Shown here: positions 1 to 7,066 of the stretch, in pieces
How positions within the stretch are numbered: the first letter of the stretch is position 1
How the letters are laid out: each line of letters opens with the position of its first letter
Source of the DNA: a virus
Taxonomy: Duplodnaviria; Heunggongvirae; Uroviricota; Caudoviricetes
Length of the DNA stretch: 7,066 nt
Strand: one strand, 5' to 3'
Virus record (IMG/VR): IMGVR_UViG_2531839098_000010
The notes under the pieces: model-generated
The model's database searches: none
What the model was told of the DNA's origin: nothing
Seen by the model: the letters and a program-made list of their open reading frames with translations, nothing else
Made by a program: the position numbers and the translations under genes

Positions 1-62
1 GTCATCCTGTTTACCTCTTTCTCAGGGAGTTTAGTCTCCAGGATTCCCGGGGCGGTTCAGCT
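1..62. repeat. Left copy of a perfect 62-bp inverted repeat; its partner is at 7005-7066
   Basis: Reverse complement of 1-62 is identical to 7005-7066. Identity ends at position 63 (g) versus 7004 (g), which are not complementary. The repeat lies inside the open frame that continues into tfa. Confidence 0.9.
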
Positions 63-588
63 GGCCGGAACTAATGAATTTATTGGTGAAGGTGACGCAT
101 ACATTCCGCCTCATACAGGTCTGCCAGCAAACAGTACCGATATTGCACCGCCAGATATTCCGGCTGGCTTCGTGGCTGTTTTCAACAGTAATGAGGCATC
201 GTGGCATCTCGTTGAAGATCATCGGGGTAAAACGGTTTATGACGTGGCTTCCGGCGACGCGTTATTTATTTCTGAACTCGGTCCGTTACCGGAAAATGTT
301 ACCTGGTTGTCGCCGGATGGAGAGTGTCAGAAGTGGAACGGCACATCCTGGGCGAAAGATGCAGAAGCAGAAAAACTGTTTCGGGTACGGGAGGCAGAAG
401 AAACAAAAAACAGCCTGATGCAGGTAGCCAGTGAGCATATTGCGCCACTTCAGGATGCCGTAGATTTGGATATTGCGACGGAGGAAGAGGCATCGTTACT
501 GGCTGCATGGAAGACATATCGGGTATTGTTGAATCGTGTTGATACAACAGTAGCAGCGGATGTTGAGTGGCCAGTCGCCCCACAATAA
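1..588 (+). CDS. tfa: Tail fibre assembly protein, lambda Tfa type; 5' end lies outside the window
   Basis: Frame 1 is open from base 1 to TAA at 586-588. Residues from [31 protein letters not shown] to the C-terminal [15 protein letters not shown]...EWP motif closely resemble lambda Tfa as I recall it. There is no in-frame start before the conserved region (first ATG at 172 would cut it), so the start must be upstream of the window. Confidence 0.85.
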
Positions 589-631: not shown

Positions 632-1204
632 CTATTTATACAATACAACACCACTCTTTTTAGTTATATATGTGCAGTTTGATGGTATATCTTTATTTAT
701 AAAAGACATTGCACCTATTTTTACATTATCCCCAATTTTACGTGATAATCCAATGATGCAACAATTAGCTCCGATATCAACGTTACTACCAATTTTTACT
801 CTTGAACTAGGCATATCACCATCTATCTGTCCAATGGTAGTATTCTGTCGTAATACCAGATTTTCACCCGCATCAACAGCAAAATGAACAACAATTCCAG
901 CATGATGGGGAATTGTCAACCCTTTTCCAATATTTGCGCCCAATCCTATTTCACAACCAAACTTGTTAATTATTTTACTGTTTAACTTTTTGGCTGCTTT
1001 CTTATGTAATTTATTACCATTAATATACATTTCGTTAGCCAACCGCCACCAGAAAAGGAAATTCCGGTTACGCTGCTTTTTCTCTCTTAAAAGCCTCCAG
1101 ATATCCATACGTTTCCGCCGAATTACTTCATGTTTCCAGAAGTTTTTTAAATTAGTAGAGTTTCCAAATAAAACAAAGTGAATTGCCATTAAGTAAGATA
1201 GCAC
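632..1204 (-). CDS. Hexapeptide-repeat acetyltransferase, WcaB / serine O-acetyltransferase (CysE) family; AT-rich cargo gene
   Basis: The track ORF is 632..1237. The probable start is GTG at 1204-1202, preceded by an AAGGAG ribosome-binding site 6 nt upstream. The C-terminal half has tandem hexapeptide motifs (GCEIGLGANIGKGLTIPHHAGIVVH..., IGSNVDIGANCCIIG, IGDNVKIGAMSFI) typical of left-handed beta-helix acyltransferases. GC content by eye is about one third, against mid-50s in the flanking tail genes. Confidence 0.75.
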   Translation of the reverse strand: MLSYLMAIHFVLFGNSTNLKNFWKHEVIRRKRMDIWRLLREKKQRNRNFLFWWRLANEMYINGNKLHKKAAKKLNSKIINKFGCEIGLGANIGKGLTIPHHAGIVVHFAVDAGENLVLRQNTTIGQIDGDMPSSRVKIGSNVDIGANCCIIGLSRKIGDNVKIGAMSFINKDIPSNCTYITKKSGVVLYK

Positions 1205-1350: not shown

Positions 1351-1360
1351 ATACGTTAAA

Positions 1361-1855
1361 TCAGAGCAGCCCCTTAACTGAGCTGGCCGCGCTATTAAGG
1401 GATGATGTCACCTTATCTTTGAAGCCGGACAGCATATCGCTGAACGATGAGGATTGCAGGCGCTCCCGCAAATCCTCATCACAGCGTTCAAGAGTCAGTG
1501 AAAATTCTATCTTTTTCGCCTTACCGTAGCGATCAAACTCGGAGCGGGTCGTATTCGTTCCGGTCAGGACATACATGCCGTAAATCTGCCCGACGCCATC
1601 AATCAAAGGCCAAGGACGTCCTGTATATGCCTGCGTGGTCAACAACGACAGCGACACTTCGCCACCAGTAATCTCAGGATAAAGAACACCAGAAAGAACG
1701 ATGCGATCATCACCTGCACCGATATACTGCCAGCTTGCTGAACGGTTAACGCGTTCATTTTTCACATGTCGCCAGCTTTTGTTTTGCTGTAACTGCTGAT
1801 GCGGCAACGTGCGCAGCTCAAAAACAAACATGCCGTAGATCATCATCATGGCCAT
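1361..1855 (-). CDS. U: Phage tail protein U (P2 gpU family)
   Basis: The 164-aa ORF directly follows the tape-measure stop. Its N-terminal MAMMMIYGMFVFELRT...SWRH and EITGG motifs are as I recall for P2 gpU-like proteins. A GGAG ribosome-binding site overlaps the T stop, so the true start is probably ATG at 1849 rather than 1855. Confidence 0.85.
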   Translation of the reverse strand: MAMMMIYGMFVFELRTLPHQQLQQNKSWRHVKNERVNRSASWQYIGAGDDRIVLSGVLYPEITGGEVSLSLLTTQAYTGRPWPLIDGVGQIYGMYVLTGTNTTRSEFDRYGKAKKIEFSLTLERCDEDLRERLQSSSFSDMLSGFKDKVTSSLNSAASSVKGLL

Positions 1856-1861
1856 GACTCC

Positions 1862-2698
1862 TCAATCTTTATCGTAAAAACTGCCACGCCTGGCACGGGC
1901 GCGCCGTTCCATTTCTGCCCTGACCATTTCGCCGACCAGTTTCGCCAGTTCGCGGGGATTCTGCGTAACAACGTTATGCAGATGAACATGAATTTCACCG
2001 CCAAATCCGGAGGCAACAGGCTCCCGGTTACGGGAAGTTGCAGGAACTGATGCCACTGGCGATCGTATGGCCTCCACCACCGGGCGGGAGCTGGCCGCAA
2101 CAACAGGGACCAGCGCCGGAGGCAGCGGAGCCGGGACCACGGGTGTGATATTAATTGCGGGGGCAGGCTTACTGACCTGCGCAATCTTCCGCTCCTGCCA
2201 CTCCCCACGAACAGCAAGTGCGCGGGGCAGGTTCTTAAAGACAATATCGCCGGGGCCAATGCGTTTTTTTGTCTCATCAACCAGCTTACCTGTGTTATCA
2301 GCAATTTTGCTGAGTCTGCGTAGCGTGCCGGTATTGCTGTCTGTGAGAGGTTTGTTGTCTTTGGGTTTATCATCTCCGGTGCCATTGCTATTTCCCGCAG
2401 ACTTCGGCGGATTGATTTTCGCAATGTCTCCCTGAAACAGAGCAACCTTGTCCTGAAGAATGGCCGCACGTTGTGCGTCTTCGATTTTCTTGCGCGCCCT
2501 TTCCGCTTCATCCGGAAGCACACCGAGTTTTTCAAGTATCCACGCCAGCGTATCCAGCAACATTTTTGCAGGCGTCAGAACAAGCTGTAACGCACCACCA
2601 AGAACGTTACCGAATACCTCGCCAGCACTGGTACATTTATCCAGCGTTTCCTTGCTGGACTCCATCGGTGACAGCAGCGATTTAAACCAGTTAAACAC
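1862..2698 (-). CDS. T: Tail tape-measure protein T, C-terminal portion, in a frame shifted by one relative to the N-terminal portion
   Basis: The 278-aa frame is contiguous in sense with the upstream tape-measure frame. It has tape-measure-like low-complexity and Pro/Ala-rich composition and ends immediately before U. It has an in-frame stop just upstream (2723-2725), so it cannot start independently except at a GTG. Confidence 0.75.
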   Translation of the reverse strand: MFNWFKSLLSPMESSKETLDKCTSAGEVFGNVLGGALQLVLTPAKMLLDTLAWILEKLGVLPDEAERARKKIEDAQRAAILQDKVALFQGDIAKINPPKSAGNSNGTGDDKPKDNKPLTDSNTGTLRRLSKIADNTGKLVDETKKRIGPGDIVFKNLPRALAVRGEWQERKIAQVSKPAPAINITPVVPAPLPPALVPVVAASSRPVVEAIRSPVASVPATSRNREPVASGFGGEIHVHLHNVVTQNPRELAKLVGEMVRAEMERRARARRGSFYDKD

Positions 2699-4701
2699 CT
2701 GGCTGAACCGCTTCCGATTACGTCAAAAACAGGGCCAAACCGTTCAAAGGTGTCGCGCAACGGGGTCAGCCTTTCCATAATCCCGCTGAACACCCCGGCA
2801 AAGAAAGCCCTGATAGGATCCCAGTATTTCCAGATAAGAACGGCAGCTCCGGCAAGCGCAGCCACGATAAGACCAACCGGACTGAACAACGCCCCGATAA
2901 CGCCTCCCAGTAAAGAAACGGAACCCGTCACCATTCCCCATAGCGCAGGTAACACCCTGACGACATTCATTGACCGGGTAAGAATGTCAAAACCAAGACG
3001 CAGGGTGGCCAGCTTCCCGTAAAGCACCCCAATAACCAGCGACAACGAGCCAATCGTTGCAGTCATTGCCAGCAACGCACCGCCTGCTATCAGTAGCTGG
3101 CGCGTCAGTACCGGATGGGCCTGCGCCAGCGAGGTGATTTTTTCAAGCACCCGCGTGAGCCACTGCGTGACAGAACGCAGCGGACCGTCAACCAGATCAC
3201 TGATGCGAATACGAAGACCTTCCCATGCGCTGTCGAGATTTTTCAGGTCCCCATCAAGATTATCAGCCATTACTTTTGCGACGCGATCGGCCTCTCCCCT
3301 TGCCCCCTGCAATTCTCTGGTCAGTTTTTGCAGCTCTCCTGAACCAGCCGCCGCAACAAGCGTCTGCAAACCAACGAACGCCTCTTCTCCGGCGATGTCC
3401 TTGAAGAAGGAGACCTGGTCCACCTGTCCGTATTTTTGTGTCGCCTTATAGAGATCAAGCAGCACATCCTCCATCGGGCGCATTTTGCCTCTGGCGTCAG
3501 CAACTGACACCCCCAGCTCTTTCAGTGCATCAGCCGCAGCTTTTGGCGGTGATGCAAGGCGGGACAGACTTGCGCGCATGGCCGTGCCAGCATCGCTTCC
3601 GCGAAGACCATTATTGGCAAGCATCCCGGCCATGGCCGCCGCTTCTTCAAGACTGATACCAAGTTTTGCGGCAACCGGACCGGTATACTTCATGGTTTCG
3701 CCCAGCGCGCGTAAATCAGTATTGGTCCGGGTAAATGCTGCTGTCAGCGTATCGCCCACCCGGTCCATTTGATCGGCTGTCAGGTTGAACTGTGTGAGGA
3801 TATTGGAGCCTATATCAGCCGTCTCGCCGAGTTCGACGCCACCTGCCAGCGCCATATTAAGAACACCGGGCAATGCGGCCTGAATGGCCTGCGGAGTAAA
3901 ACCAGCCATTGCCAGAAAGCTCTGCCCACTGGCGGCATCACTCGCAGTAAACTGTGTTTCAGCAAGTTTTAACGCCTGCTCACGCAGCGCCTTAAACTGC
4001 GGGCTGTTTTTGTCGATTCGCGTCAGTGCCTGAACGCGGGACATCTCTTTGCCGAACCCGATCGCAGGCTGCAAAAAACGCCCGGCAGCATAGCCGCCCG
4101 CCGCTGCCGCACCAATTGCCAGCGCACCACCTGTTTTCAGTTTTCCCGCGGTTTCCTGCGCGTGCGAATACCGCTCACGCGCCTGCGTTACACGCGCAAG
4201 CGCCTGCCGTTCGCGTTCAAGCTGGTTGTTGTATTGTTCGGTGCGTCTGATGGCCTGCTGAATGGTGTTATCGCTGCCTGTCAGGGAAATGCCGTGGCGT
4301 TTCAGCTCTCCGCCAAGTTCCCTCATTTTCTGAATTTCCCGTGTGCGCGATTCATTCAGGCGTTCAAGCCGGGTGCTTAACTGCTGCATCAGCTTTTGTT
4401 GTTTTTCGCTGAGCACTGTACCCGTGCGTTGTAACTGATTAAGGGCGTTAAGCTGGCGTCGTGCTTTCACGATGCCAGCATCCGCTTTACTGACAGCGTC
4501 GCGGGCGCGCTCAAATGATCGCGCCTGACGCTCGAGATTTTTGATCGCCCCCTGCGTTCGCTGGATGGAGTCACCAAACTGCCCCATCAGGCGGCGTGCG
4601 TTTTCGGCAGGTCGGGTCAGCCTGTCAACGGCGCTGAAAGCGACCCGGATATCAAGAGTCTTCATTGTCTGCATTCCCGCTGCGAAGTGCCGCCCGCTCA
4701 C
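2575..4701 (-). CDS. T: Tail tape-measure protein T, N-terminal portion; the last ~44 codons before the stop at 2575 are out of frame
   Basis: Long ORF between E' and U with coiled-coil-like, Ala/Leu/Arg/Gln-rich sequence followed by hydrophobic segments. The track start at 4701 is GTG; a more likely start is ATG at 4674 or 4665, overlapping the end of E'. Sequence after ...FDVIGSG (about 2707) looks like out-of-frame read-through (Cys/Arg/Trp-rich). Confidence 0.85.
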   Translation of the reverse strand: MSGRHFAAGMQTMKTLDIRVAFSAVDRLTRPAENARRLMGQFGDSIQRTQGAIKNLERQARSFERARDAVSKADAGIVKARRQLNALNQLQRTGTVLSEKQQKLMQQLSTRLERLNESRTREIQKMRELGGELKRHGISLTGSDNTIQQAIRRTEQYNNQLERERQALARVTQARERYSHAQETAGKLKTGGALAIGAAAAGGYAAGRFLQPAIGFGKEMSRVQALTRIDKNSPQFKALREQALKLAETQFTASDAASGQSFLAMAGFTPQAIQAALPGVLNMALAGGVELGETADIGSNILTQFNLTADQMDRVGDTLTAAFTRTNTDLRALGETMKYTGPVAAKLGISLEEAAAMAGMLANNGLRGSDAGTAMRASLSRLASPPKAAADALKELGVSVADARGKMRPMEDVLLDLYKATQKYGQVDQVSFFKDIAGEEAFVGLQTLVAAAGSGELQKLTRELQGARGEADRVAKVMADNLDGDLKNLDSAWEGLRIRISDLVDGPLRSVTQWLTRVLEKITSLAQAHPVLTRQLLIAGGALLAMTATIGSLSLVIGVLYGKLATLRLGFDILTRSMNVVRVLPALWGMVTGSVSLLGGVIGALFSPVGLIVAALAGAAVLIWKYWDPIRAFFAGVFSGIMERLTPLRDTFERFGPVFDVIGSGSARCLTGLNRCCHRWSPARKRWINVPVLARYSVTFLVVRYSLF

Positions 4702-5181
4702 GCCAGCTAACCACTTCGCCGGGCGTCATCATGAAGATTTCGGCGGGCGACCAGTTAAAAATAACGGCAATATCTGCCACAAAGTCTTCTATGTGCTCAA
4801 AGCACACAACCGTGATCAGGCTTCCGTCGCCTGTTCGTTCTTCCCGCCAGAGTCCGCACCGCTCAAAAAATTTACGGCAACCACACATAACTGAATAAAG
4901 TCACGGGATGCCATTTTTTTGATCGTCACTTCATCCAGTCGCGGTGATGTCACGCGTGACAGCAGCGTAAACATGGATTCCGCTTTCAGATTCAGCACAT
5001 CAGACAGCGACAAATCTCGCAGAGATCCAGCCTGCTCAATAGCCCCGGTGATCTCCACATACGTGATTTTTTCGCCGCCTCGCTCAATTGGTTGGGTAAG
5101 TTTTACACCACGCTCACTGGTTTCTTTCACAGTGTCAGTAACTACCGTGTTTTCGGTATCGATGTTTTTCGTCTCTTTCAT
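4652..5181 (-). CDS. E+E': E+E' fusion chaperone produced by programmed -1 translational frameshift
   Basis: A -1 frame opens exactly at the slippery site (FFERCGLWREER...NADNEDS) and ends at TGA 4654-4652, overlapping the start of T. This is the arrangement described for the P2 tail operon. Confidence 0.7.
4816..5181 (-). CDS. E: Tail assembly chaperone E (P2 gpE family)
   Basis: The 121-aa ORF sits between the tube gene and tape measure, with an AAGGAG-like ribosome-binding site 7 nt upstream of ATG 5181. It contains the slippery heptamer near its 3' end. The position and frameshift architecture match the P2 E/E' and lambda G/GT pattern. Confidence 0.8.
   Translation of the reverse strand: MKETKNIDTENTVVTDTVKETSERGVKLTQPIERGGEKITYVEITGAIEQAGSLRDLSLSDVLNLKAESMFTLLSRVTSPRLDEVTIKKMASRDFIQLCVVAVNFLSGADSGGKNEQATEA
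4864..4870 (-). other. Slippery heptamer T TTT TTG for the E to E' -1 frameshift
   Basis: Minus strand reads aaT TTT TTG with codons aat|ttt|ttg in the E frame, the X XXY YYZ pattern. The -1 frame from ttt ttt gag is open for a further ~70 codons. Confidence 0.7.
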
Positions 5182-5203
5182 CAGGAAACTCCTTTCAGTC
5201 AGA

Positions 5204-5222
5204 GGCGACGCACTGCGCCGCC
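5204..5222 (-). other. GC-rich RNA hairpin in the FII-E intergenic region
   Basis: In the minus-strand transcript, GGCGGCGC pairs with GCGUCGCC (8 bp including one G-U pair) around a 3-nt loop. There is no U-tract after it, so it is not a canonical terminator. Confidence 0.35.
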
Positions 5223-5235
5223 TGCATATTACTTA

Positions 5236-5748
5236 TCAGCCAAGCCCAAGCGCGGAACGGATGCGATCGGGCACAATGTCCTTGCCGTCCTTCCGGTAAA
5301 TGAAGTTCAGCAGGTCAATCTCCCACAACGGGCGATCGTTAACACTCAGCTTGTAGTAGGTGTTTTTAATGGCGTAAGTGTGTGATGTGGCTTCTCCCTG
5401 TTTGGCTTCCCCCATATCAATTTCCGTCACACGTCCGCGCATTTCGACTTCATACAGGTCGCTTTCATCATCGGTGTAGTATTCCCCCGCAAAACGCAGT
5501 AGCGTGCCGTCAATCGTGCCGCCATACTTCAGGAACAGCTCACGAACTGCGCCCCCCATGACAAAGCTCGCATCAAGCGCGGAGTCGTCCAGGCCGAGGT
5601 CAATACTTACCGCACCCATCATGCCACCACCCCGGTAGCTGTCGGTTTTGCGCGTCAGTTTAGGCAGGGTGACGGACGTCACCTTACCCACTTCGTTTTC
5701 ACCATCCACAAACAGCGTAAAAAAGCGAAGATGTTTTGGTACAGCCAT
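5236..5748 (-). CDS. FII: Tail tube protein FII (P2 gpFII family)
   Basis: The 170-aa ORF has motifs SVTLPKLTRK, YRGGGM, DLGLDD and EMRGR as I recall for P2 FII-like tube proteins. Its ATG overlaps the FI stop by 1 nt (TGATG), with a GGGAGGTG ribosome-binding site upstream. Confidence 0.9.
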   Translation of the reverse strand: MAVPKHLRFFTLFVDGENEVGKVTSVTLPKLTRKTDSYRGGGMMGAVSIDLGLDDSALDASFVMGGAVRELFLKYGGTIDGTLLRFAGEYYTDDESDLYEVEMRGRVTEIDMGEAKQGEATSHTYAIKNTYYKLSVNDRPLWEIDLLNFIYRKDGKDIVPDRIRSALGLG

Positions 5749-6932
5749 CAGGCACCTCCCAGCACCGCAAATGCGGGACCAAAGAATTCATCAGTAAACG
5801 ACTGGTAAAGCTCCATGTCTTCCAGCGGAGGAACGGGCGTATATTTGTAGCGAATACGCACACGCCCCTGACGTAAATTCGTGGTGCTGTTATCCTCGAT
5901 GTCATACCAGCACTCCGCGCCAATCAGTTTCCCGGCAGTAACCAGTGAATCCAGTTTTGCCCTGATGGCACTGATAACATCCTTCACGTTCGCAGGTGTC
6001 AGTGGACTGTCGATGGTTTCAAACTGCGCTTCCGCAATTGAATCAGCCAGCACCTGTGCGGTTCGGGTATACACCTCAAAGATGTAGGCGTTCGTTTCCG
6101 GTGTGCGGTTGCCCCAGAAGCGGAACCCGTTGCGACGAATAATGGTCGTGATTTCTTTGTTGTTGAGGCTGTTGGCATCACTGTCTTCGGCCTGCAACGA
6201 CCAGAACACATGCCTCGACATCCCAAGCACATTTTTAACCGGAACGTTGGACAGCGATTTGTGCCAGCCCTGCTCATGGTCAATGTACGCACGAAGGCCG
6301 CACGCATAAGCAGGCGCGGGGAACGTTTCGTTTTTGCCACTTTTCAGGTTGTAGGCGATGAAGTCAGGCCATAAGAGCATCACCTCACGTTCGTTGAATT
6401 TCTGGCGGTAGGTAATCGCCTCAGCCATCGTGTTACAACCATGACATGTGGCATACACAAACGCGCGCAGTTTACCCGCAATCACGCACAGGGATTTTGT
6501 TACCGCCTCCGTGTCCAGCTCCGGCGCGGCCAGAATACGCGGACGGTATCCGATGCTTTCATCCTGCTCTGCAACAAGCAGCGCATACATCCCCGTATAG
6601 CTGCCGTCAGATTCAGAACCACCGATAACCAGTTGATCCTGCGTCTTACCGCCTTCTTCTTTGTGTTCAGCCACGCGAACGACGATCACTTTTGTGCTCA
6701 CCTGGTCTGCGATAGCCTTAAGCGCACGATAAAGCGTCCCCGTAGTCCCGCATTTTCCCAGCACGTCATTGACGCGGGTCAGCAGTGTGGGCTTGTTCAG
6801 CGGGAACAGCTCCGCGTCCGCATCATCTGCCGTTGCCACGATACCGATAACACTGGAATCAACATCATTAATCGCTGTTACCAGGTCGGTACTTTCCGTA
6901 ACACGGGCACCATGAAAACGAGTTTCACTCAT
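5748..6932 (-). CDS. FI: Contractile tail sheath protein FI (P2 gpFI family)
   Basis: The 394-aa ORF has motifs FPLNKP, KLRAF, WPDF, EQGWHKSLSNV, RRNGFRFWGNRT, YTRTAQV and YTPVPPLE characteristic of P2-type sheath proteins. Gene order FI-FII-E-T-U matches P2. Confidence 0.9.
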   Translation of the reverse strand: MSETRFHGARVTESTDLVTAINDVDSSVIGIVATADDADAELFPLNKPTLLTRVNDVLGKCGTTGTLYRALKAIADQVSTKVIVVRVAEHKEEGGKTQDQLVIGGSESDGSYTGMYALLVAEQDESIGYRPRILAAPELDTEAVTKSLCVIAGKLRAFVYATCHGCNTMAEAITYRQKFNEREVMLLWPDFIAYNLKSGKNETFPAPAYACGLRAYIDHEQGWHKSLSNVPVKNVLGMSRHVFWSLQAEDSDANSLNNKEITTIIRRNGFRFWGNRTPETNAYIFEVYTRTAQVLADSIAEAQFETIDSPLTPANVKDVISAIRAKLDSLVTAGKLIGAECWYDIEDNSTTNLRQGRVRIRYKYTPVPPLEDMELYQSFTDEFFGPAFAVLGGA

Positions 6933-6994
6933 AGCTTCAGCCCCTTGTATCCGTTAAATGATTCGGCAACAATCATCACCCACCACGCGCGTAA

Positions 6995-7066
6995 TCACCG
7001 TAAGAGCTGAACCGCCCCGGGAATCCTGGAGACTAAACTCCCTGAGAAAGAGGTAAACAGGATGAC
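6995..7066 (-). other. 3' end of a minus-strand reading frame entering from outside the window; ends three codons after the right inverted repeat
   Basis: On the minus strand the inverted repeat encodes the same peptide as at the left end (...[20 protein letters not shown]), but here it continues LLR and stops at TGA 6997-6995, 62 nt upstream of the FI start. It is either the C-terminus of an upstream gene or a truncated copy of the tfa 5' end. Confidence 0.35.
7005..7066. repeat. Right copy of the perfect 62-bp inverted repeat
   Basis: Exact reverse complement of 1-62. Confidence 0.9.

Follow-up and report, generated by a model that had tools for sequence, protein, structure and literature searches.

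An IS629/IS1203 end abuts a 5'-truncated lambda-type tfa gene in a P2-like prophage of Escherichia coli O157:H7

The window, a stretch of 7,066 nucleotides of viral DNA, begins and ends with the two arms of a perfect 62-nucleotide inverted repeat (positions 1-62 and 7005-7066). From position 60, just within the left arm, the plus strand carries a lambda-type tail fibre assembly gene (tfa, 60-588), recognized by its identity to lambda tfa and a match to the Pfam family Caudo_TAP, that is without its first 50 nucleotides and constitutes a pseudogene remnant. Sequence scanning revealed a strong hairpin with a 13-bp stem followed by a run of T residues at positions 595-624 (no strand assigned), between tfa and the acetyltransferase gene that converges on it; this hairpin is probably a terminator. 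The acetyltransferase gene itself (632-1204, minus strand) was classed as a left-handed beta-helix (hexapeptide) acetyltransferase "moron" and is named "serine O-acetyltransferase" in RefSeq. Its match to Hexapep and weak matches to EpsC, CysE and WcaB all fell below their cut-offs, including every NCBIfam equivalog cut-off, and the RefSeq name is therefore to be taken as nominal only; the gene may be a surface-polysaccharide-modifying moron. Positions 61-1203 showed 91.5% identity to the tail-fibre region of the P1-like phages vB_EcoM-Ro157c2YLVW and JL22, and tfa and the convergent acetyltransferase gene are one cassette whose members travel together.

The greater part of the window (1355-6996, minus strand) is occupied by a P2-type tail module with 93.9% identity to positions 27,594-33,239 of phage P88, and this assignment was supported by Pfam matches for GpU, the tail tube and the sheath as well as by RefSeq annotation. 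All genes of the module lie on the minus strand and comprise gpU (1361-1849), the tape measure gene (1862-4665, frameshifted according to RefSeq), gpE+E' (4652-4807), gpE (4816-5181), the tube gene FII (5236-5748) and the sheath gene FI (5748-6932), together with 64 nucleotides upstream of FI. Two overlapping open reading frames (2575-4701 and 1862-2698) make up the split tape measure gene, and its frameshift is a further sign of prophage decay. Between the module and the right-hand repeat lies an 11-nucleotide filler, ACCGTAAGAGC (6997-7007, plus strand), that is absent from P88 and from other O157 strains, including those with the form of the locus that is common in O157.

Alignment of the whole window to the complete genome of E. 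coli O157:H7 strain 4276 revealed one mismatch in 7,066 positions, and the source of the window is probably a sister strain. In the complete genome the perfect repeat runs on for 9 nucleotides past each end of the window to give a perfect tip of 71 nucleotides, beyond which the inverted repeat extends over 1,313 nucleotides at 95.7% identity. The 62-nucleotide repeat is the mere visible tip of two 1,310-bp repeats, and in strain 4276 (locus L001) two full-length 1,310-bp elements in inverted orientation bracket the window. What the window shows at 1-59 and at 7008-7066 is in each case the left end (IRL) of an IS629/IS1203 element, clipped by the window edge.

The left-hand 59 nucleotides (minus strand) belong to a full-length IS3-family element of the IS1203/IS629 type, as established from the complete genome and from domain matches, and this tfa-side copy is named IS1203 in RefSeq. 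Its orfA starts at the codon complementary to bases 3-5, and the transposase gene reads leftwards and out of the window. One base of this IRL differs from one other IS1203 copy, yet matches the usual GGGAATCC. The right-hand 59 nucleotides (plus strand) were identified from the complete genome as the IRL of a second full-length copy, inverted, of the IS629 type and of a different subtype, with its orfA ATG at 7062; the final five bases of the window, ATGAC, are the start of orfA. The two copies differ from one another at 56-57 positions (4.3%), which fits the published IS629 subtypes of O157:H7, these being ~4% apart, with IS1203 as subtype I (PMC3271280).

Both copies have the ends TGAACCGCCCCGGG... 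and ...CCCGGGGCGGTTCA and are thus elements of ~1.3 kb with the imperfect TG...CA terminal inverted repeats of the IS3 family. Each carries overlapping orfA and orfB reading frames with a programmed -1 frameshift, annotated in RefSeq as "programmed frameshift" with an AL1L pseudoknot. OrfA matched HTH_Tnp_1, and OrfB matched rve, HTH_21 and the NCBIfam IS3 family transposase model NF033516, the last at 316 bits against a cut-off of 160. The element is also dispersed in many copies joined to unrelated sequence. The original prediction had proposed looking for the 62-bp sequence in other genomes; a survey of 5,426 complete E. coli genomes placed it in 3,486 of them, both chromosomally and on plasmids, at 22,329 sites in all (per genome, median 3 and maximum 50). 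In every case it lay under the annotation "IS3 family transposase", and it adjoined many unrelated genes, among them yeeJ, glsB, a portal gene, rclB and plasmid genes. In size, ends, frameshift, DDE (rve) transposase, copy number, location in a prophage and association with truncation and deletion, the window elements share the properties of IS629/IS1203 in O157:H7, and nothing essential differs between them.

One feature of the IS3 family, a 3-bp target-site duplication, was absent at both copies, the flanking trinucleotides being AGC and TGT at the left copy and AGC and ATA at the right. Nearby simple insertions of the same IS do have such duplications, namely TCC in strain NCCP 13914 (locus L008) and CAG in strain TW14359 (locus L009). 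Loss of the target duplication is expected if deletion or rearrangement came after insertion, and the identity of the elements is unaffected.

The position of the joint could be read directly from comparison with lambda. Nucleotide identity to lambda tfa (90.3%) starts at window base 60; the joint, which falls between positions 59 and 60, reads ...TATAATCT/GCTGGCCGGAAC in lambda and ...GGCGGTTCA/GCTGGCCGGAAC in the window. At codon level, lambda tfa runs ATG GCA TTC ... TAT AAT CT/G CTG GCC GGA ACT, compared with ...GGCGGTTCA/GCTGGCCGGAACT in the window, the IS end standing in place of the first 50 nucleotides of tfa (16 codons and 2 nucleotides). The GCT at 60-62 belongs to tfa itself and matches the 3 nucleotides beside the other IS by chance. 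The perfect inverted repeat at the window ends and the break in homology near its inner edge, both of which had been noticed beforehand, were confirmed. Resemblance to lambda had been placed exactly at the inner edge of the repeat; this holds for the protein, where it begins with the leucine encoded at nucleotides 61-63, but at the DNA level identity starts at nucleotide 60 rather than 62/63, and the foreign segment is 1-59. It had also been claimed that the boundary of the repeat marks a recombination joint inside a tfa coding sequence, and this is borne out, the upstream segment being unrelated to any tfa.

Frame 1 is open from base 1 to a stop at 586-588. From codon 21 (nucleotide 61) its product shares 83% identity with lambda Tfa and 88% with the Tfa of a P1-like phage, and the Caudo_TAP domain (PF02413) is complete (136.6 bits, E = 7e-40, residues 75-195 of the translation). 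The remnant therefore has the domain and the high identity expected of the lambda Tfa type, with likeness extending from lambda codon 18 to near the C terminus at 90% nucleotide and 83% amino acid identity; the last residues differ from lambda and follow the variant of the P1-like phages. It is not a complete gene with its own start directly 3' of a fibre gene. In contrast to lambda tfa, it is without the first 16 codons and 2 nucleotides, the ribosome-binding site and the upstream stf gene, and its context is P2-like whereas that of lambda tfa is lambdoid. As had been predicted, the first 20 codons of frame 1 do not match lambda Tfa; nor do they match the Tfa of the P1-like phage. These 20 repeat-encoded "codons" are fortuitous read-through of an IS end and represent no protein segment.

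When the frame was extended through the IS into the complete genome, it met a stop after only 30 open codons, none of them ATG, GTG or TTG. Downstream, a canonical start codon first appears in frame at position 172 (GTG), without a Shine-Dalgarno sequence. The statement that the window holds no in-frame start is thus correct for the region upstream of the homology, although the GTG lies further in. An ordinary tfa start a few codons upstream, which would have argued against a joint, was not seen; what lies upstream is the IS transposase gene. The "mosaic tfa" of the original prediction is a 5'-truncated tfa pseudogene and not a mosaic coding sequence. In RefSeq the remnant is nonetheless presented as an intact "tail fiber assembly protein" of 181 amino acids (window positions 43-588) with an ATT start inside the IS end, and in the common O157 form it is given a CTG start. 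A coding-sequence start within the IS is probably an annotation artefact that has been propagated over hundreds of genomes.

The genomic setting of the window was established from its flanks in the complete genome, which on one side consist of uvrC, pgsA and the tRNA genes for Gly, Cys and Leu and on the other of P2-type early genes encoding a replication endonuclease, ParM and a partition protein. The host element is a defective P2-like prophage of E. coli O157:H7 (P88-like; Sp13/CP-933T-type), the name Sp13 being based on a published description (PMC2669165). O157 Sakai has no P2-like prophage other than Sp13, in which most morphogenetic genes are missing (PMC2669165). The present element resembles it in combining a P2-like early region with a remnant tail module, in the loss of most morphogenetic genes and in its interruption by IS. 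By contrast, only a minority of genomes (8 of 5,426) have the form in which the module is flanked by IS copies left and right.

Comparison with intact P88, a P2-like Xuanwuvirus, indicated what has been retained and what has been lost. In P88 the gene order is baseplate - H - tfa -> <- tfa' <- Hv' -> DNA invertase <- U <- T <- E' <- E <- FII <- FI -> D. The O157 element agrees with it in the U-T-E'-E-FII-FI order convergent with tfa, with D divergent. The invertible segment of P88 takes up the same genomic position as the tfa region of the window, between the baseplate/fibre genes and the U-T-E-FII-FI operon, and likewise contains a tfa that converges on U. The P88 layout implies that convergence of tfa on a P2-type tail operon is native to the genus and not a hybrid feature. 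The proposal that a lambda-type tfa beside a P2-type operon is itself a hybrid arrangement therefore stands for the type of tfa, which is foreign, but not for the layout, which is normal in P88-like phages. The Tfa of P88 itself shares only its C-terminal 66 residues with the window Tfa, at 44% identity. The fibre segment of P88 is truly invertible and resembles Mu G, P1 C and e14 P in type, with 65-nucleotide imperfect repeats inside fibre gene H (3280-3344 and 6320-6384 of locus L006) that contain a core of the AAACCNNGGTTT type (AAACC..GGTTT), two opposed Hv-tfa cassettes, and a Resolvase/HTH_7 invertase gene at 6435-7022 of the same locus. In the O157 element, by contrast, the invertible segment and the invertase gene are replaced by a single lambda-type tfa and the acetyltransferase gene.

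The complete head, lysis, baseplate and fibre gene set of a P88-like phage is not present in the O157 element. On its outer side, the IS at tfa borders sequence that matches P88 only as far as position ~9,965, and tfa would fall at ~24,860; across this IS, ~15 kb of late genes are without counterpart, comprising the portal, terminase, capsid, lysis and baseplate genes and fibre gene H. A gap of ~15 kb at this point agrees with the description of Sp13 (PMC2669165). A search of the phage collection yielded no intact phage with the tfa-acetyltransferase cassette beside gene U, and the 15-kb figure accordingly uses P88 as a proxy for the ancestral prophage. Gene D is truncated or absent, the common O157 form retaining its first 267 nucleotides. 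With a frameshifted tape measure gene, a truncated D and the loss of its fibre gene, the prophage is decaying.

Examination of the locus across complete genomes showed that the inner and outer junctions on both sides of the module are present as single pieces with 100% identity in the same 8 of 5,426 genomes. In most O157 genomes, a truncated IS629-type copy stands at tfa, and on the opposite side FI is followed by the D remnant and by an IS30 that carries another IS. Relative to this common form, the window form has a full IS1203-type element at tfa, with 7 more nucleotides of outer flank and 4 fewer nucleotides of tfa. The IS-tfa junction at 59/60, TTCA/GCTGG, is accordingly offset by 4 nucleotides from that of most O157 genomes, TTCA/ATCTGCTGG (9060/9061 of locus L002 and 2873/2874 of locus L005). 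The IS there meets tfa 4 nucleotides further upstream, at ...GGTTCA/ATCTGCTGGCC, and the IS-derived peptide SPGFPGRFN precedes LLAGTNEF. On the sheath side, the window lineage has a full-length, inverted copy 75 nucleotides upstream of the sheath gene, which is 100% identical over 1,057 nucleotides to the truncated tfa-side copy of other strains. The IS subtypes are thus swapped between the two sides in the window lineage compared with most O157 genomes.

The filler beside the sheath-side copy corresponds to nucleotides 1105-1115 of IS629/IS1203 and shows microhomologies, GTAAT on one side and TG on the other; in sequence, it resembles a templated filler or end-joining scar. The absence of a target duplication together with this 11-nucleotide filler points to secondary deletion and end-joining rather than plain transposition. 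Three origins were considered and rejected. The filler does not appear to be flanking sequence brought from another IS site, as no other genome has the junction and the sequence is found inside the IS. An insertion of IS into IS30 of the type seen in TW14359/EC4115 is not the precursor of the right junction, given that its flanks differ, that it has its own CAG duplication and that there are 8 mismatches. A single homologous inversion between the IS copies does not explain the arrangement either, the orientation of the module relative to the outer flanks being the same as in the common form and the IS copies being non-chimeric. The configuration of the 8 genomes needs at least three events, and one event starting from the common form is insufficient.

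No other IS is as abundant in O157 as IS629, which inactivates genes and gives rise to deletions; those that depend on IEE and adjoin the IS can be as short as a few nucleotides or exceed 40 kb (PMC9943667). Taken together, the joint at 59/60 is almost certainly the left terminal inverted repeat of IS629/IS1203 set against a 5'-truncated lambda-type tfa in a P2-like prophage of O157:H7, and would have arisen by an IS-associated deletion and later IS-linked events. In the sequence of events that we propose, an IS would have inserted in or near the start of tfa, and an IS-associated deletion would then have taken the first ~50 nucleotides of tfa along with ~15 kb of late genes, joining the IS to the ParM/partition region of the prophage. 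In the sub-lineage represented by 8 of the 5,426 genomes, further IS-linked events may have moved the tfa junction by 4 nucleotides and left an IS1203-type copy at that junction; they may also have brought in a second copy, of the IS629 type and inverted, 75 nucleotides upstream of the sheath gene through a 3-kb deletion and a microhomology/filler scar. The outcome would be a 6.9-kb tail module between inverted IS copies, of which the window comprises the module and 59 nucleotides of each IS. Adjacent deletions of the transposase/IEE type, with gene conversion or re-insertion, would be a plausible means of accomplishing these steps in this order.

It is possible, although we regard it as doubtful, that the filler, the 4-nucleotide shift of the tfa junction and the missing target duplications are natural footprints of a transposase/IEE pathway (PrimPol-type, with microhomology-mediated end-joining). 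This pathway has so far been characterized mainly in vitro and in laboratory excision assays. Were the footprints of this kind, the locus and its O157 variants would provide a natural series from which IEE-type reshaping of prophages could be reconstructed, and the series could include the swap of IS subtypes across the module without inversion.

The joint had originally been attributed to an invertible tail-fibre system, in which the 62-nucleotide repeats would be crossover sites of the Gin/Cin/Pin type that join a constant part to alternative variable parts. That a perfect inverted repeat brackets the segment, that the edge of the repeat coincides with the break in tfa homology and that the intact relative P88 has an invertible fibre segment and invertase at the equivalent position would all suit such a system. 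The repeat, however, is the end of a 1,310-bp IS present thousands of times elsewhere, and no invertase gene was found in the window or in its flanks (~6.6 kb to the right and ~7.3 kb to the left in locus L001). A search for the gix/cix-type AAACCNNGGTTT core gave 2 matches, each with 2 mismatches (positions 2520 and 3656), against 3.7 expected by chance, and none of these lay in the repeat; in P88, which served as a positive control, the same search gave matches with 0 and 1 mismatch inside the 65-nucleotide repeat arms. In real invertible systems the repeats lie within the fibre gene and not within tfa, whereas those of the window are at tfa codon 17 and 75 nucleotides upstream of the sheath gene. 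The window has a single tfa, with neither a fibre gene nor a second cassette, and comparison between genomes showed the same orientation in 8 of 8, with no orientation polymorphism. Every defining component being absent, the invertible-switch reading is refuted and is left with practically no probability. The inverted 1.3-kb IS copies might instead flip the 6.9-kb tail module by RecA recombination, or act as the ends of a composite transposon. The arms are of ample length and similarity for the former (1,313 nucleotides at 95.7% identity, with a 71-nucleotide perfect tip), and prophage- and repeat-mediated inversions in O157 are on record (PMC8743559, PMC7430833). Nevertheless, the module has the same orientation and the IS copies are non-chimeric in 8 of 8 genomes, and the configuration occurs at a single locus only. 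No functional change would be expected from flipping, because the genes at the module ends are already cut off from their partners. Flipping or transposition of the module is consequently improbable.

The location of both window ends inside a high-copy repeat, which is typical of short-read contigs, could also suggest that the terminal repeat and the joint are assembly artefacts, arising from a contig folded back or made chimeric at a repeated k-mer. Set against this, the inner and outer junctions are 100% identical in 8 independent complete genomes from several laboratories, and a single base of 7,066 separates the window from strain 4276; the chance of an artefact is negligible. Given an authentic junction, the question arises of whether it yields a functional, altered or shortened Tfa, expressed by IS-borne or read-through transcription and acting as a chaperone for the fibres of O157 lambdoid prophages. 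The remnant keeps the whole Caudo_TAP domain (residues 75-195), is carried in RefSeq as a non-pseudo coding sequence, albeit with a non-canonical start (ATT, or CTG in the common form), and is conserved in hundreds of O157 genomes. Ahead of the homology, however, neither a canonical start nor a Shine-Dalgarno sequence is present, and the frame is interrupted by a stop at a distance of 30 codons. A promoter scan of positions 1-1400 returned 4 sites against 3.7 expected by chance, none of them upstream of tfa within 1-172, and transcription of the IS transposase points away from tfa. The IS frame that precedes tfa differs between the two lineages, and the resulting difference in junction peptides argues against a selected fusion. 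The rest of the prophage is decaying as well, with a frameshifted tape measure gene, a truncated D and a lost fibre gene. A functional Tfa is therefore very unlikely, and truncation by an IS629/IS1203 element with loss of function remains the preferred reading.

Truncation of tfa by IS629/IS1203 in an O157:H7 prophage is ordinary biology that has already been annotated. Truncations and deletions driven by IS629 in O157:H7 prophages are well documented and are used for strain typing, and the locus is one more example of an IS629 truncation, one whose remnant public annotation labels as intact. It also carries a caution, in that a terminal inverted repeat located at a break in protein homology can mimic a programmed DNA switch, when here it consists of two clipped IS ends beside a dead gene. 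Only two by-products are mildly informative, namely the microhomology/filler scar beside the second IS and the fact that P1-like phages share the tfa-acetyltransferase cassette.

Two further observations concern the sheath side of the module. The region from the sheath gene to the tRNA-Leu side is an IS hot spot across O157 lineages (9750-12880 of locus L005, 9818-11127 of locus L008 and 10457-11766 of locus L009), where gene D contains an IS30, which in turn can hold IS1203 in one orientation or the other, and where a further IS1203, flanked by a TCC duplication, occurs between FI and D. Within the sheath gene, window position 6133 is C and the corresponding base of strain 4276 is A, this being the sole difference between the two sequences; strain 4276 has a sheath protein accession of its own, and another accession is common to most O157 strains.
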